Virus record (IMG/VR): IMGVR_UViG_2541047774_000008
Coordinates: 1-54,688 of that record
Direction: 5' to 3' (one strand)
DNA: 54,688 nt
Source of the DNA: a virus
Taxonomy: Duplodnaviria; Heunggongvirae; Uroviricota; Caudoviricetes
Of this stretch, positions 3,001-48,058 are shown piece after piece. Under the pieces are notes generated by a model. That model ran no database searches. It worked only from the letters and a program-made list of their open reading frames with translations, and was not told the origin of the DNA. How positions within the stretch are numbered: the first letter of the stretch is position 1; every line of letters begins with the position of its first letter. The position numbers and the translations under genes are program-made.

Positions 3001-3405
3001 ATCGCTGGCTGACTTCTTCGCGGCTGCCGTGTTCTGTGCCACTACGGACGCGTTACGCGCCACCTCTTCCACCATCAGTTCAAAGCGGCGCAGTGCCTCC
3101 GGACGGGCATCATCCTCCGTCATGGCACCGAGAAAATCATTCAGCGTACCCGGTTGTGAGTCTTCATACACGGTGATGATCCCGGCATGCGATGGCGGGA
3201 AGCCTTCCACCAACAGAATAACGCTGTACTGACCGTACTCAACGTCCATGCTGTAACGCCCGGCTTCATCCGGATTTTCAGATGCCACCGTGTTCACCAC
3301 CACCGTGGTGCTGTTACGTTTTGCTTTCAGCTGGATTGTGCAGTTCTGTACCGGTTTACCTGCACCGTCTTTCAGTACACCTGAAATTTTTACTGCCATA
3401 TTCAC
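1..3405 (-). CDS. side tail fibre protein with C-terminal intramolecular chaperone (peptidase S74-like) domain
   Basis: 1134-aa ORF directly downstream of lom; Ala/Ser/Thr/Lys-rich low-complexity segment; C-terminal ~150 aa (DRELKDNIQ...ENQVSELVALVRQLTGSEH) resembles the autoproteolytic chaperone of tail fibres/spikes; stop codon at 1-3. Confidence 0.85.
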   Translation of the reverse strand: MNMAVKISGVLKDGAGKPVQNCTIQLKAKRNSTTVVVNTVASENPDEAGRYSMDVEYGQYSVILLVEGFPPSHAGIITVYEDSQPGTLNDFLGAMTEDDARPEALRRFELMVEEVARNASVVAQNTAAAKKSASDASTSARDASASKEAAKSSEMSAASSETAAGNSAKAAKASETNADNSAQAAAASQTASANYATAAKKSETNAKNSEAATKSSETNAAKSAADALNYRNQAQVIVGDNIGLGSAPRDCPDISGNPSGYIGFMSIMSNAKGFPSIASGESSLTGFISQVDGTPAYTGVFQGWATRSLYTYRWNPTIGPQWTRHARKDEVIRFQRSSDTRTIILSTDVQADGCYLQVDADGQWGAFNPKAGRWQPLAVAQGGTGANDASTARSKLEVMFEAKTGLDANTNLNDIKGTTAGFYYQPMSANAKPELNYPIQLAGALLVQRTGANGSDGCIQSYFVYNNSSILYRRIYTSTQGWSVWKKIVLTERIEEGESTTYVYSNYSPSAPRLQVSTSGLWGCHNGSSWVPLPIGQGGTNAATVDGARTNLGLGRNNSPQLNSLFLDRYSDSTNTYTSSGILHTRLLATDSTVRLGADMYVETLSNEPGQLTIRFTYDGSTGASKYLNLNSEGNLIVDSAILKSTVEKPLQIRSANPAIRFNETDRPANTPTYTLIANAGDWFIQKRNYDDAGSVSNAIAYNFANDRIDVQNLKASGLITANSGIATLTGHDWNAQHTDNVDKFRPIAGSTNGPAGSMVLGGIHVQFSKNYAVQFGGRNSGFWGRTIENGTTQEWKKLLTVDDLNSSTDLAVRSLTTSNPIKSGGGRIDVLGSTSDYSKMDCFVRGFDSTGNSLAWALGSSVGVSKMLSLKNFFSGAEILLNGNDGAVQLKTGAVNGAKAQALTINKDEVNSTVDLTLTKQTGTGNRFVLQNLGNTELPFAVKVWGSGDRQNVFEVGTSAAYLFYAQKTSSGQLFDVNGAINCTTLNQLSDRELKDNIQIISDATEAIRKMNGYTYTLKENGLPYAGVIAQEAMEAIPEAVGSFTHYGKELQGPTVDGNELREETRYLNVDYAAVTGLLVQVARETDDRVTALEEENTTLRENLATAGTRITTLENQVSELVALVRQLTGSEH

Positions 3406-3463
3406 CCCACAAAAAAGCCCGCCTGAACCGGCGGGCTGTCATAACACTGTGTTACCTGGCTAA

Positions 3464-40317: not shown

Positions 40318-40392
<75 letters not shown>

Positions 40393-40395
40393 ATA

Positions 40396-40471
<76 letters not shown>

Positions 40472-40473
40472 AC

Positions 40474-40550
40474 TGGACCGCCACCGGGGACTCGAACCTC
40501 GCACACTCAACTTAAAGGGTTGACGCTCTTTCCTGATGAGCTAGTGGCGG
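40474..40550 (-). tRNA. atypical tRNA-like gene (anticodon loop CCUUUAA, possibly Lys-UUU-like)
   Basis: 77 nt; acceptor CCGCCAC/GTGGCGG, D-stem GCTC/GAGC, T-loop TTCGAGT, CCA encoded; C at position 33 and one A-C mismatch in the T-stem. Confidence 0.5.
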
Positions 40551-40551
40551 C

Positions 40552-40627
40552 TGGTGGCCCTTGCTGGATTTGAACCAGCGACCTGGCGATTATGAGTCGC
40601 TCGCTCTCACCACTGAGCTAAAGGGCC
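40552..40627 (-). tRNA. tRNA with CAU anticodon (Ile2/Met type)
   Basis: 76-nt cloverleaf: acceptor GGCCCTT/AAGGGCC, anticodon loop CUCAUAA, T-loop TTCAAAT, CCA encoded. Confidence 0.75.
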
Positions 40628-44434: not shown

Positions 44435-45121
44435 TCACTCCTTCTCTTCTTTTCCGTAGTGGAGTTGGCCAATTTTGATAAGAGGGCGTCCCTGAGATTT
44501 GCGGTGTAGATTGGTATCGCGCAGAGAATACACACAGCCACAATATTCCTGCTGATAGAATTTTTCGCGCTTGCTGATTTCAATCATACGGGACGAGCCG
44601 CCCTGCTTGCGCCAGTTATAATCCCAGTACACCATACCCGGATAATGCGCAACAGCTCGCCGCCCACACTCGTTAACCTGCTGCATATTTTTCCAGCGTG
44701 AAATGCCCAGTGAACTGCTGATCACACTGAAACCATTTTCAGCAGCGTACAACGCTGTCCGCTCAAAACGCATGTCAAAACACATGGTACAACGGATCCC
44801 CCTCTCAGGCTCCCATTCCATTCCTTTGGCACGTTCAAACCAGTTGTCGGTGTCGTAATCAGCATCGATAAACGGCACGCCGTGTTGTTCAGCAAAGCGA
44901 ATATTTTCATCCTTACGAATTAAATACTCTTTCTGAGGATGAATGTTCGGGTTGTAGAAAAAGATGGTGTAGTCGATTCCCGAGGCCTGAAGCGCCTCCA
45001 TCACTTCACCGGAACATGGAGCACAGCAAGAGTGCAGTAGTAGTTTGTTTGCCCCGTTTGGGAGCTCCAATTTAGGCCGTTTGAAATCAGCAATAGTCAT
45101 AAATATTTTTATTGGGGTCAT
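44435..45121 (-). CDS. QueH-like (DUF208) protein, putative epoxyqueuosine reductase
   Basis: 228 aa with [12 protein letters not shown] and CGC Cys motifs typical of DUF208/QueH. Confidence 0.55.
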
Positions 45122-45274
45122 GAAAATAGCACAGAGTGTAGCATCAGAGCAGGGCTATCGGGAATATATGTCTAAATCTGGTAATATCTGGTTTTGACGC
45201 AAAGCGGACAACCACGCTGGCTCTACCCTGCGCCATGAAAATGTCAATTCACATCTGAACTAATGCTCTTTAAT

Positions 45275-45700
45275 CTAGTAACGTCTAAAATACCTAACAT
45301 TTCCTTGATAAAATGCCAGTACACGCTGCATAGCTTCGCTCTTCCGGCACTCGCGACAGATTATATTCAGGCGCCTGTCGTAGCGGCGTATTTCGCCGTC
45401 TGGTAACGACCAGATAAGGTCCGGATCAACCACTGCAGGTTTCTTCACCTTTGCCCTTGAGAGTTTTTTGCGGGCATTTTGCCAGTCCTTACGCGCCTGT
45501 TCAGACGGGAATAACCCGTAGCCAGAATTGTATACATCGCCACTGGCAACCAGCTCTCTGGCGAGAACACTCATCAGATATCTTGTCGCACCTGTTTTCG
45601 CTTCCAGTTGTCGTAACGTCTCGCGCCCGCTCAGGCGCACGAGTTCAACAACCTGCCTCTTAATTTTTTCCCGCTCTTCTTGTGTAAATACTTTTGCCAC
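45275..45700 (-). CDS. hypothetical protein (141 aa), downstream of the replication initiator
   Basis: ORF in the position of a helicase loader or accessory replication gene; no recognisable motif. Confidence 0.45.
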   Translation of the reverse strand: MAKVFTQEEREKIKRQVVELVRLSGRETLRQLEAKTGATRYLMSVLARELVASGDVYNSGYGLFPSEQARKDWQNARKKLSRAKVKKPAVVDPDLIWSLPDGEIRRYDRRLNIICRECRKSEAMQRVLAFYQGNVRYFRRY

Positions 45701-45740
45701 AAGCCCTCCTGAAAATTACCTCATGACCAGAAATTAACAC

Positions 45741-46817
45741 TTACCCCCTGAAGCCCGGCGGAATTTCGTTATCCGGTTCAGAAATATGATTCACACAACG
45801 CTGGTTGTTCGTGCCGCTTACCGGGAGCAACCAAGGGTTCTCAAAATTCCGGTCCGGTCCAAAAAACGTCGTCGCTCGCTGAACAAATTCCGTTCCCGTT
45901 TTCCCGGTAGCCGCCAGGTATCTTGCGTAACGCCTCACACCATCCAGCATGGCCTCTGGTGGCACCCCCTCGCGTAATCTGGCCTTCCAGGCACTGAAAG
46001 CGGATTTCTTCGGGTTTGCCCCAGCACGCAACGGGTATTCCCGCCAGACCTGTTCGAACACATCCGGATAATCTACTCGTCCCACAGGCTGCCCGGTGTT
46101 TTCCGGGACTACCCGATCGGCTTCCCGCTGAATGGCGGAATCGGCTTCAGGCTGCTGCAGTTGGTGTGATTGCTCCGGCCTTGCGGTCATCACCTGCTGC
46201 ACAGCGCCCGAATCGGCTTTCAGCGCATACGCTGAATCGGCTTCCGGTGTCGTGCCTGCTGGCTGACCAGGATTGACGGTCTGAACATCCCCTGCCTGGT
46301 TCGTGGCGTTTTTTACGCCATGGACCATAGTGTTTTGATCTTCTTGATCTGTATCTTTATCTGTATCTTTATCTGTCGTGACTCGTCGTGACATGTGCGT
46401 GACATTTCGTGACGCGCCGTGACAATCGCCATTTTGTTCCTGCTTTCTTTCCCTCTCTCGCTGCGCCCTCTTGCGCTCTGCAGGAGATTTTGCGGTTTGC
46501 GAAATATTGCCGTTGTCCTCTTTAAGCACCTGGCGTTTTTCCCATCCAGTGATTAAATCACCATCAAGTACCCGCCCCTGCATCGTCTGCAAAATTGAAT
46601 CAATTACCTCTTCTGTCACGTCGAGCGCACTTGCCAAATCTTCTGTCGTGACATCAATGTGACCTCGCGTGACATTTCGTGACGCGCTCACCAGGAGGTG
46701 GATATACACTGCCATCACTGTTGCAATTGGCTGCCCTGACACCCTGGCAATTGTTCGCCACTTAGGGTCATTTGGCATGTCATGCCATAATCTGAGCCAG
46801 GCGTTAGCCATACTCAC
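45741..46817 (-). CDS. replication initiation protein (replisome-organiser-like) containing the ori iterons
   Basis: 358 aa with conserved N-terminal and C-terminal domains around a low-complexity DKDTDKDTD linker encoded by the iterons. Confidence 0.7.
   Translation of the reverse strand: MSMANAWLRLWHDMPNDPKWRTIARVSGQPIATVMAVYIHLLVSASRNVTRGHIDVTTEDLASALDVTEEVIDSILQTMQGRVLDGDLITGWEKRQVLKEDNGNISQTAKSPAERKRAQRERERKQEQNGDCHGASRNVTHMSRRVTTDKDTDKDTDQEDQNTMVHGVKNATNQAGDVQTVNPGQPAGTTPEADSAYALKADSGAVQQVMTARPEQSHQLQQPEADSAIQREADRVVPENTGQPVGRVDYPDVFEQVWREYPLRAGANPKKSAFSAWKARLREGVPPEAMLDGVRRYARYLAATGKTGTEFVQRATTFFGPDRNFENPWLLPVSGTNNQRCVNHISEPDNEIPPGFRG
46377..46683. repeat. origin-like iteron arrays (CGTGAC x9) inside the replication initiator gene
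   Basis: Five CGTGAC copies at 10-11 bp spacing (46377-46423) and four CGTGAC/TGTGAC copies at 46646-46683. Confidence 0.7.
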
Positions 46818-46882
46818 CTCTTCTGATACCGAATCTTTTTACTCACGAGTTGCCGGAAGCGATTCGATATGGCTATTGTCAG

Positions 46883-47308
46883 TCAATGTACTGCCACAGC
46901 ATTTCCTGCCGGGCCACCACAGTTCATCTGATTGAAACCGGCGATTGCCACTGCGACAAAATCATCAGCGTCTCTCACCAATCGCTCCCGCGTCTCCACC
47001 AGCTCCCGAAAATAAGCTGAACTGTGGCTGCGCATTCTGGCCACCAGCAAAGGTGGCATTGCCTTTTCGATCGCTGGTAACAACGCCTGAATTTTTTCAA
47101 CTGCATCAGGGGTGTCTTTCTCTACCCAGCGGAAAATTTTCTGGGTATTGCGAGCCAAGGCTTCCGGATGACTGTCGTCATACAGTTCCGGGAACGTCAT
47201 TCCCAGCTCGAAATACGCTTTGGTAATTTTCGCAGCCGGTACTTTTTCGCCGTCCGGATGCGCCCAGGCATTCATCGCCATGCGGATGTGTTCATGCTTG
47301 ATTTTCAT
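46883..47308 (-). CDS. YdaT-like protein (cII position)
   Basis: 141 aa starting MKIKHEHI; follows the Cro-like gene as in Rac ydaS-ydaT. Confidence 0.55.
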   Translation of the reverse strand: MKIKHEHIRMAMNAWAHPDGEKVPAAKITKAYFELGMTFPELYDDSHPEALARNTQKIFRWVEKDTPDAVEKIQALLPAIEKAMPPLLVARMRSHSSAYFRELVETRERLVRDADDFVAVAIAGFNQMNCGGPAGNAVAVH

Positions 47309-47559
47309 GAATCAACTCCCATCAGCTTTTTCGTAGTAGTTTTATTCCTGCCAATAGTTAAAATTGCATCGGCAGAAAATAATCCGTTTGATGCAAGAGC
47401 GATTTTTTCAGCGTAATTTGTTTCGCCGGTATATTCTGTGCGAGGCAATTTTCCGTTATCCATCCATTTATAGATTGCTCTTTGGCTGACACCACAAACG
47501 TCGGCCACAACAGCAACGCGAACAGTTTTGATTACATCTTCAAGTGTTTTCTGGTTCAT
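47305..47559 (-). CDS. Cro/YdaS-like HTH regulator
   Basis: ORF 47305-47631; ATG at 47559 with GAGG RBS; HTH segment VCGVSQRAIYKWMDNGKLP; divergent from the repressor. Confidence 0.65.
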   Translation of the reverse strand: MNQKTLEDVIKTVRVAVVADVCGVSQRAIYKWMDNGKLPRTEYTGETNYAEKIALASNGLFSADAILTIGRNKTTTKKLMGVDS

Positions 47560-47638
47560 ATCACCCTCACAATGTGAACTTTGAGTACATGCTATAACAG
47601 AACTGACAGTACATTCAAGAGCGAATATCATTGAACTT
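47560..47638. promoter_or_regulatory. immunity-region divergent promoter/operator interval
   Basis: 79-bp gap between the divergent repressor and Cro-like genes with direct repeats AGTACAT (x2) and TGAACTT (x2). Confidence 0.5.
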
Positions 47639-48058
47639 ATGGTTCATGAAGATAAAGCGCGTAAAGAGTTCGCCAGTAGGCTTGCGCTAGCCTGTGAAAA
47701 CGCTGGTTATGAACAACATGGAAGGCAGGCAGAAATTGCCCGTCGAATGAAATTAACACCAAAAGCGGTTAGCAAATGGTTTAATGGCGAAACAATTCCT
47801 CGCCGGGAGAAATTAAGGGAATTAGCAACACTAATAGGAACAACACCAACCTATCTTTTGGGAGAGGATACAGAAGAAAGTGGACAGGTACGTTTCTATC
47901 AGGAGTTAAATCCAAGACAAAAAATCATCATTGACCTTCTGGACGAGCTCCCTGACAGTGAGACAGATGAACTTTTAAAAACTCTTGAAGAGAAAAAACA
48001 GAAGTACAATGCAATTTACGAAGAGTTAGCACGAAAGAAAAAACAAAAAGCCTCTTAA
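47639..48058 (+). CDS. phage repressor, DicA/RacR-like HTH-XRE protein
   Basis: 139 aa; N-terminal HTH (QAEIARRMKLTPKAVSKWFNG), no peptidase S24 domain; first gene of the plus-strand block. Confidence 0.75.
   Translation: MVHEDKARKEFASRLALACENAGYEQHGRQAEIARRMKLTPKAVSKWFNGETIPRREKLRELATLIGTTPTYLLGEDTEESGQVRFYQELNPRQKIIIDLLDELPDSETDELLKTLEEKKQKYNAIYEELARKKKQKAS

Follow-up and report, generated by a model that had tools for sequence, protein, structure and literature searches.

Two phased hexamer arrays and an AT-rich segment as a probable replication origin within the initiator gene of an Escherichia coli lambdoid prophage

Some phages are known to carry their replication origin within the gene of their own initiator. 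In lambda, ori lies inside the O gene and comprises iterons and a 39-bp region of high AT content; the iterons are about 18–19 bp long, show internal dyad symmetry and are each bound by an O dimer (PMC6022878). In SPP1, the gp38 protein (G38P) binds the direct repeats of oriL in gene 38, beside an AT-rich DNA-unwinding element (DUE) (PMC6316719). ORF13 of TP901-1 and Rep2009 of Tuc2009 bind regions rich in direct repeats in their cognate genes, and these regions have been shown to be ori (PMC8965321). An origin within an initiator gene is thus not new, since lambda, SPP1 and the lactococcal phages precede the case described here. This case is the replication initiator gene of an E. coli lambdoid prophage (IMG/VR record IMGVR_UViG_2541047774_000008, positions 1 to 54,688, hereafter called the window), which contains two arrays of the hexamer CGTGAC. 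The arrays are probably iterons for the N-terminal domain of the encoded protein and, together with an AT-rich repeat, would form the prophage origin embedded in the initiator gene. The features concerned are the following.

45741–46811, minus strand: replication initiator gene, 356 amino acids plus stop (open reading frame 45741..46817).
46647–46683, minus strand: array A, with CGTGAC at 46647, 46668 and 46678 and TGTGAC at 46658–46663.
46615–46620, plus strand: inverted hexamer copy (GTCACG on the plus strand), 27 bp from array A.
46377–46423, minus strand: array B, with five exact CGTGAC, which read GTCACG on the coding strand; proposed as the core array of iterons.
46325–46376, no strand assigned: AT-rich segment, candidate DNA-unwinding element, encoding DKDTDKDTDQEDQN.
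46297–46327, no strand assigned: imperfect palindrome with a 13-bp stem, adjoining the AT-rich segment at the end that faces away from the iterons.

An initial annotation of the window had described nine CGTGAC copies in two helically phased arrays, all inside the initiator coding sequence. The location within the open reading frame and the two phased arrays stand, and the array at 46377–46423 is exact. The count has to be amended to eight exact copies and one TGTGAC, and the other array starts at 46647 rather than 46646. The inverted copy at 46615–46620 had gone unnoticed. In array B, which is the second array in gene direction, the copies begin at 46377, 46387, 46398, 46408 and 46418 on the plus strand (spacing 10/11/10/10), and the array encodes CHGASRNVTHMSRRVTT in the inter-domain linker. 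The peptide DKDTDKDTD, previously attributed to the repeats, comes from the adjoining 12-bp repeat TCTTTATCTGTA, whereas array B encodes C-H-G-A-S-R-N-V-T-H-M-S-R-R-V-T-T. Array A, 229 bp away from array B, has a spacing of 11/10/10 and encodes ASRNVTRGHIDVTT. It falls within the winged-helix coding region, at amino acids 43–56, which form the last part of helix 3 and the loop preceding the helix-turn-helix (HTH), and we propose it as an auxiliary initiator-binding array.

The repeat unit is 10–11 bp long, with a conserved core of 6 bp devoid of dyad symmetry, and the array copies all have the same orientation. Such spacing places every copy on the same face of the helix. In the whole window, CGTGAC is found 29 times against 24.9 expected. 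There is no overall enrichment, and the hexamer signal is therefore purely local: 9 of the 29 copies sit within 307 bp, and arrays A and B are the sole places in 54.7 kb with at least three YGTGAC per 50 bp.

Several lines of evidence indicate that the DNA of these hexamers, and not only the encoded protein, is conserved. The 10–11 bp period is not a multiple of 3, and the GTCAC(G/A) copies are read in codon phases 3, 1, 2, 1 in array A and 2, 3, 1, 3, 1 in array B. When the gene was recoded synonymously 20,000 times with the protein fixed, GTCACR occurred 1.3 times on average and 6 times at most; none of the recodings reached the 9 copies observed. A codon alignment was then considered, covering 19 species with a locus GC content of 34–63%, including E. 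coli, Aquitalea, Entomomonas, Rahnella, Serratia, Bordetella, Pseudomonas, Acidovorax, Stenotrophomonas and Chromobacterium. Conserved codons with their third base inside a hexamer were compared with those outside, a codon being called monomorphic when a single codon is used in at least 94% of the species. Nine of 11 conserved codons are monomorphic in the hexamers versus one of 46 outside (Fisher p = 6e-8), and codon entropy differs likewise (Mann-Whitney p = 9e-7). In array A a single codon is used for V47 (GTC, 19/19), T48 (ACG, 19/19), G50 (GGT, 19/19), H51 (CAC, 18/18) and V54 (GTC, 19/19), and in array B for S134 (TCA, 18/18) and V144 (GTC, 18/18). Invariant residues outside the hexamers do vary in codon, such as E57 (GAA in 10 species, GAG in 9), S61 (four codons) and L63 (six). 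The DNA sequence of the hexamers is itself under selection. Since the hexamer codons are frozen while those of other invariant residues are free, the invariant C/G-H...S-R...V-T residues, in a linker otherwise variable and of low complexity, are best explained by the DNA motif and not by protein function.

The comparison with relatives that the initial annotation had called for bears out the arrays. The N-terminal 160 amino acids gave 812 database homologues, from which 54 genomic loci of different species were retrieved (designated by L numbers below). About 23 species share GTCACG arrays in matching positions of the gene, array A at nucleotides 129/139/149/160 of the gene and array B at about 380–430, and most homologues of this class also have the inverted copy, at nucleotide 193. 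The species include Shigella, E. albertii, Aquitalea, Entomomonas, Rahnella, Serratia, Bordetella and Pseudomonas, as well as Acidovorax, Stenotrophomonas, Gilvimarinus, Chromobacterium, Superficieibacter and Scandinavium. The pattern is also seen in the phages Pseudomonas phi1 and Aeromonas pAEv1818, and phage Tritos carries the same arrays. Across relatives, neighbouring copies within an array are spaced 10 bp apart in 99 cases and 11 bp apart in the other 30.

In more distant homologues GTCACG is replaced in both places by another hexamer, and the phasing is unchanged. GTAACG occurs in Pantoea, Enterobacter, Marinobacter, Sphingomonas and one metagenome-assembled genome (MAG) of an acidobacterium, CGAACG or RGAACG in about 16 beta- or alpha-proteobacterial and acidobacterial loci, and GCAACG in Ralstonia phage Firinga. 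The two regions of each gene were searched independently for their best phased hexamer. Of 43 genes with such a hexamer in each of the two, 39 gave the same one twice; the four other cases are ties or register shifts.

Mosaic relatives help to define what the sites belong to. In L005 (E. coli) and L007 (E. albertii), the N-domain is kept at about 87% DNA identity and joined to a DnaT-like C-terminus; L005 has a lambda-P-like gene as the next one. These two genes have 6+5 GTCAC copies with the phasing kept, although a 15-nt insertion and substitutions alter the encoded peptide. Conversely, L003 and L004 (both E. coli) retain the C-terminal half (92–96%), followed by a DnaC-like ATPase, and the N-terminus of L003 type has no detectable homology to the family profile (hhalign probability 0.4%). 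GTCAC is absent from the L003 and L004 initiator genes, which instead carry AAGGGGCTT twice at nucleotides 185/196 and three times at nucleotides 441/452/463, with 11-bp spacing and differing codon phases. Their second array is followed by a purine-rich repeat, as in the GTCACG type, and the recombination joint of the mosaic relatives lies at the purine-rich repeat. Since L005 and L007 keep both the N-domain and GTCACG while L003 and L004 change both, the sites travel with the N-terminal domain; as judged from these loci, it is this domain that they belong to, rather than the C-terminus, the host or the adjacent genes. The two arrays of L003 and L004, next to an N-domain without homology, also mean that the two-array plan is not limited to one protein family.

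Some further observations were made on these loci. In L003 the AAGGGGCTT arrays are located at 3144–3172 (three copies) and 3411–3428 (two copies), with the same arrangement in L004, and all five GGGGCTT copies of the 5.6-kb L003 locus are inside the initiator gene. In L046 (a Serratia MAG) and L058 (Pantoea), two distant homologues, the N-terminal domain is joined to another C-terminal part (YVYYVATTDGDVVRVGISRNPWARCKDL), which may resemble a GIY-YIG/T5orf172-like motif, and ACTACG/TAGTA-type repeats take the place of phased NNNACG arrays.

Directly after array B in gene direction lies the AT-rich segment, which is purine-rich on the coding strand and has GATC sites at 46337 and 46346. It includes the 12-bp tandem repeat mentioned above, 2.9 copies of which are found at 46342–46376 by Tandem Repeats Finder and which encodes the DKDTDKDTD linker. 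The lowest-GC 40-mer of 45200–47700 (25%) is within this segment, as is the least stable 50-mer of the gene, at -55.9 kcal/mol versus a mean of -71.9 +/- 4.2 kcal/mol. The same layout is found in relatives. Array B is followed by ACAGATAAAGATAAAGA in nearly all homologues, most of them reaching 62–82% AT there even with a gene of 38–50% AT. Within the GTCACG class, most relatives have ACAGATAAAGATAAAGA at the head of the 40 nt that come after array B, and these 40 nt show the same AT range even in genes of 38–43% AT. The exceptions are L029 (50% AT) and phi1, where the measured stretch was shifted by an additional GTCAC copy further downstream. Following array B, D and K are written with GAT and AAA, both AT-rich codons, in GC-rich hosts too, and the other iteron classes have equivalent (AGATAA)n or (CAGATA)n repeats.

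The palindrome at 46297–46327 is predicted to form a single-stranded DNA hairpin of -10.9 kcal/mol (z = -5.5) and is partly conserved in L003 and L004. A palindrome also stands beside the AT-rich region of lambda ori, and the present one might, on this weakly supported analogy, belong to the origin. As for DnaA boxes, no site matching TTATNCACA without mismatch occurs in 45200–47700, and the lone match with one mismatch, at 45787, is far from the arrays; DnaA boxes are not obligatory for phage origins.

The reading as an iteron-type origin derives from the combination of phased direct repeats specific to the N-domain, a segment prone to unwinding and the location within a gene of the early operon. 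We infer that the initiator binds the repeats, that melting takes place at 46325–46376, that array A has a part in the process and that helicase is then loaded. Transcription from an early rightward-type promoter, through the cro-like, the cII-like and then the initiator gene, would yield the initiator. Monomers would fill the direct repeats of array B head-to-tail. Array A would probably be filled likewise, and looping or wrapping may bring it alongside array B. The resulting nucleoprotein complex would destabilise the strand-asymmetric AT-rich segment, after which the C-terminal module would recruit the host DnaB helicase machinery.

Several points weigh against this origin reading. The iteron core is only 6 bp, with weakly conserved flanking positions. 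In the HTH proper, no residue co-varies with the iteron class. About 7 of 55 distant homologues have no clear phased array (L030, L032, L045–L048 and L058), which means that the in-gene arrays are not universal in the family. The prophage has no annotated helicase-loader gene, which makes the downstream (helicase) steps conjectural. What the selection on the DNA proves is a function in cis, which need not be initiation, and no origin mapping, footprint or binding data for this initiator family were found in the literature searched.

Among the other explanations, the one that best withstands comparison is that the arrays are bound by the initiator for control, through autoregulation, a transcriptional roadblock or copy control of the titration/handcuffing type, with replication starting elsewhere. 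The location of array A near the 5' end of the gene (130–170 nt into the open reading frame), in the region coding for a folded domain, would suit an operator or roadblock, and so would the inverted copy 27 bp away. Some homologues (L036, L054 and L039) have array B only, and the two arrays may thus have separable roles. Iteron plasmids, moreover, use the same sites for initiation and for control. Against a purely regulatory role, nearly all homologues examined have array B next to the AT-rich, least stable segment, a hallmark of an origin core, and no other hexamer cluster exists in the 54.7-kb window that could be a separate origin. In-gene repeats of this kind are also the mapped origin in SPP1, TP901-1, Tuc2009 and lambda (PMC6316719, PMC8965321, PMC6022878). 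We therefore consider this explanation unlikely.

Still less probable, and to be retained only as an outside chance, is that the hexamers bind another protein, such as a host factor, the cII-like YdaT-family protein, a Cro-like protein or DUF977/LygF, for example at an in-gene promoter or anti-termination site. The cII-like gene is indeed immediately upstream, lambda CII recognises direct repeats 10 bp apart (TTGCN6TTGC), and one weak sigma-70-like match overlaps array B on the plus strand (46399–46426, 9/12). However, E. coli has both the GTCACG and the AAGGGGCTT types, with different N-domains beside the same YdaT-family and DUF977 neighbours, and Pseudomonas, Aeromonas and Bordetella elements keep GTCACG arrays beside different neighbours. 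A promoter activator would need fewer than nine copies in two arrays, and the promoter and terminator scan gave counts at chance level (2 promoter-like matches versus 2.5 expected). Finally, the notion that the repeats are a by-product, without cis-acting function, of a repeated peptide (SRNVT...VTT twice) or of slippage-prone low complexity is hardly credible: the two arrays do encode similar peptides (ASRNVTRGHIDVTT and ASRNVTHMSRRVTT), and S44, N46, V47, T48, R49, G50, H51, V54 and T55, as well as S134, R135, V144 and T145, are invariant at the protein level, but the hexamer is read in all three frames, synonymous sites are frozen within hexamers and free at other invariant residues, L005 and L007 changed amino acids and copy number while keeping hexamers and phasing, and the recoding simulations never attain the observed count.

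That the gene is an initiator, as initially annotated, is supported independently by a whole-length match to phrog_3729 "replication initiation protein" (E 2.4e-257) and by its position, in relatives, between cII-like and helicase/loader genes; by homology and context, the assignment can be taken as sound. Two parts are distinguished.

46527–46811, minus strand: N-terminal winged-helix DNA-binding domain, amino acids 1–95.
45744–46109, minus strand: C-terminal module, amino acids 235–356, exchangeable between initiators with different N-termini.

Between the domains, a basic/acidic linker holds array B and the AT-rich repeat (amino acids ~130–160). As a separate observation on the middle linker (46116–46247), ATCGGCTT occurs four times, at 46116, 46140, 46212 and 46236 (spacing 24/72/24), all in one codon phase; the copies encode (E/K)ADS(A/G), and one pair is deleted in L004.

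AlphaFold2, with an alignment of 72 sequences, gives a confident N-terminal winged helix (predicted local distance difference test score, pLDDT, 80.5). The predicted domain comprises helices 4–14, 16–25 and 29–45, a loop at 46–55, the HTH helices 56–63 and 67–77, and a wing at 78–87. In this model, the fold is closest to the N-terminal domain of DnaD, of the "replisome organiser" type. Sequence-based classification is less clear-cut. No Pfam family is found below E 0.01 for the initiator protein. The Pfam scan at E <= 10 lists only HTH_Crp_2 (0.068), PhyR_sigma2 (0.11) and Phage_rep_org_N (0.15), with no match to Phage_rep_O. The Phage_rep_org_N match (PF09681) is sub-threshold (E 0.15, 12.5 bits versus a gathering score of 23.3), and its alignment spans amino acids 5–123 and profile positions 1–118 of 121. 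RefSeq names close relatives "phage replisome organizer". The protein probably belongs, as a remote proteobacterial representative, to the replisome-organiser/DnaD-like group, membership of PF09681 itself not being established. A PDB sequence search with the N-terminal profile left the N-domain unmatched; it returned only weak DnaT matches, which are due to the C-termini of some alignment members.

The C-terminal module matches phrog_1701 "DnaD-like helicase loader" (E 1.6e-62) and is presumed to be a helicase-recruitment interface. Its last 20 amino acids, QRCVNHISEPDNEIPPGFRG (45744–45803, minus strand), are near-identical to the extreme C-terminus of the host primosomal protein DnaT (6aep_A; residues 159–179 of E. 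coli DnaT), and the same tail also ends several homologues with otherwise different C-domains. From this resemblance, the tail may be a docking peptide for the host primosome, which we mention as a lead. The available passages of a paper on the preprimosome (PMC13377028) contain nothing on the function of the DnaT extreme C-terminus.

Positions specific to an iteron class are found only in the loop encoded by array A (46646–46681, amino acids 44–55) and in the basic linker. The loop reads NVTRGH in proteins with GTCACG and ATERGR in those with CGAACG. This raises the idea that the DNA-binding domain of the initiator is partly encoded by its own binding sites, the array A-encoded loop reading the NNN of NNNACG. 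We hold this idea to be rather improbable. If it were true, the site and its reader would reside in the same nucleotides, a change of specificity would need protein and DNA to change together, and the existence of discrete specificity classes would be explained. The alternative is that the loop changes passively, specificity residing in the basic linker or in subtler positions.

The probable origin thus described lies in a prophage that adjoins tRNA-Ser and mtfA. Strain 14EC020 has an identical initiator gene (100%), and the 2.5 kb around it (45200–47700) show 97% identity to phage Tritos. The start is the ATG at 46811, in agreement with the RefSeq and Tritos annotations, and all homologues open with MANxW. 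The neighbouring genes are as follows.

47639–48058, plus strand: CI-like repressor, the only plus-strand gene in this local order.
Between the CI-like repressor and the cII-like gene, minus strand: Cro-like gene.
46883–47308, minus strand: cII-like YdaT-family gene, immediately upstream of the initiator gene.
45275–45700, minus strand: DUF977/LygF "Ren-like" gene, next after the initiator gene.
After the DUF977/LygF gene, minus strand: QueH, hokD, RusA and Q.

In the closest relative, no helicase or loader gene (P, DnaC-like or DnaB) is annotated from the replication module to the terminase genes, an arrangement common to isolated phages such as Tritos and Evi. In other relatives the initiator gene is directly followed by a DnaC-like, P-like or DnaB gene, and the order repressor, cro, cII-like, initiator, helicase/loader is found in the phages pAEv1818, phi1 and Firinga and in loci L003–L005. 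An Rfam scan of 45000–48000 at E <= 1 gave a single match, to a long non-coding RNA, which is spurious; there is thus no known RNA element in this region. Two further observations concern the vicinity. The epoxyqueuosine reductase gene QueH stands beside hokD (44435–45121), just downstream of the replication module, and the late region has four tRNA genes at 40318–40627, namely Gly-TCC, Thr-TGT, Lys-TTT and a CAT-anticodon tRNA (Ile in RefSeq).

The replication module is widespread. Of 5426 complete E. coli genomes, 2651 contain the whole or a part of it, and 1647 contain it at near full length; it also occurs in isolated phages of Escherichia, Aeromonas, Pseudomonas and Ralstonia. The analysis provides a precise, testable prediction of the origin, namely iterons at 46377–46423 and an unwinding element at 46325–46376. 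The NNNACG classes, which switch in both arrays, appear ready-made for studies of incompatibility and host range, and could be used for orthogonal phage-derived replicons. More generally, the locus offers a clear case of a cis-acting DNA element that dictates amino-acid conservation in an otherwise disordered linker, and calls for caution before conserved residues are read as protein function or such genes are recoded. No description of these iterons, of the two-array plan, of the NNNACG classes or of the frame-independent imprint on the protein was found in the literature searched, which includes a passing mention of repeats in an O-like gene in a paper on Pseudomonas MD8.

How, then, does this probable origin compare with the described systems? 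The "lambda-style" arrangement initially suggested is supported by the computational tests as far as an in-gene origin is concerned; the protein, in turn, has no Phage_rep_O homology and is an analogue of O, not a homologue. As in lambda, the origin would lie between the regions coding for an N-terminal DNA-binding domain and a C-terminal recruitment domain, a likeness seen here at the sequence level. A repeat array is followed, in gene direction, by an AT-rich unwinding region (PMC6022878), and the initiator gene comes right after a cII-type gene in the early operon. The initiator is also modular and mosaic, the N-domain and iterons being exchanged as a unit and the C-domain being matched to the loader. 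In contrast to lambda, the repeats are direct, with a 6-bp core, instead of dyads of ~18 bp, a second array lies in the region coding for the DNA-binding domain, and there is no P-like gene in the present prophage, whereas the relative L005 has one.

Iterons of plasmids are about 17–22 bp long and lie outside the rep open reading frame, usually together with DnaA boxes. The prophage arrays differ from such origins, with their winged-helix Rep proteins, by the 6-bp core, the sites within the open reading frame and the lack of a nearby DnaA box. The features shared with iteron origins in general are the 5 + 4 copies of the same orientation in helical phase and the switch of hexamer class with the initiator lineage. 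For the N-domain itself, the closest fold is predicted to be the N-terminal domain of DnaD, a replication initiation protein of Firmicutes.

The likeness to G38P of SPP1 concerns direct repeats as well as a DUE of high AT content within the initiator's own gene, binding to these repeats being predicted in the present case. The NCBI and Tritos annotators give the present gene the same family name, and its N-terminal winged helix is modelled as DnaD-like. Unlike the prophage, SPP1 has a second origin, oriR, and its own loader (G39P) and helicase (G40P); here the window has no second hexamer cluster, and the hosts of the family are proteobacteria. TP901-1 and Tuc2009 differ in their repeat sequences and hosts, the homology of their proteins to the present one being at best remote, and neither a two-array plan nor NNNACG classes are reported for them in the available portion of the source. 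The closest validated precedents for the probable origin described here are SPP1 oriL, the TP901-1 and Tuc2009 repeats and the in-gene repeats of lambda.

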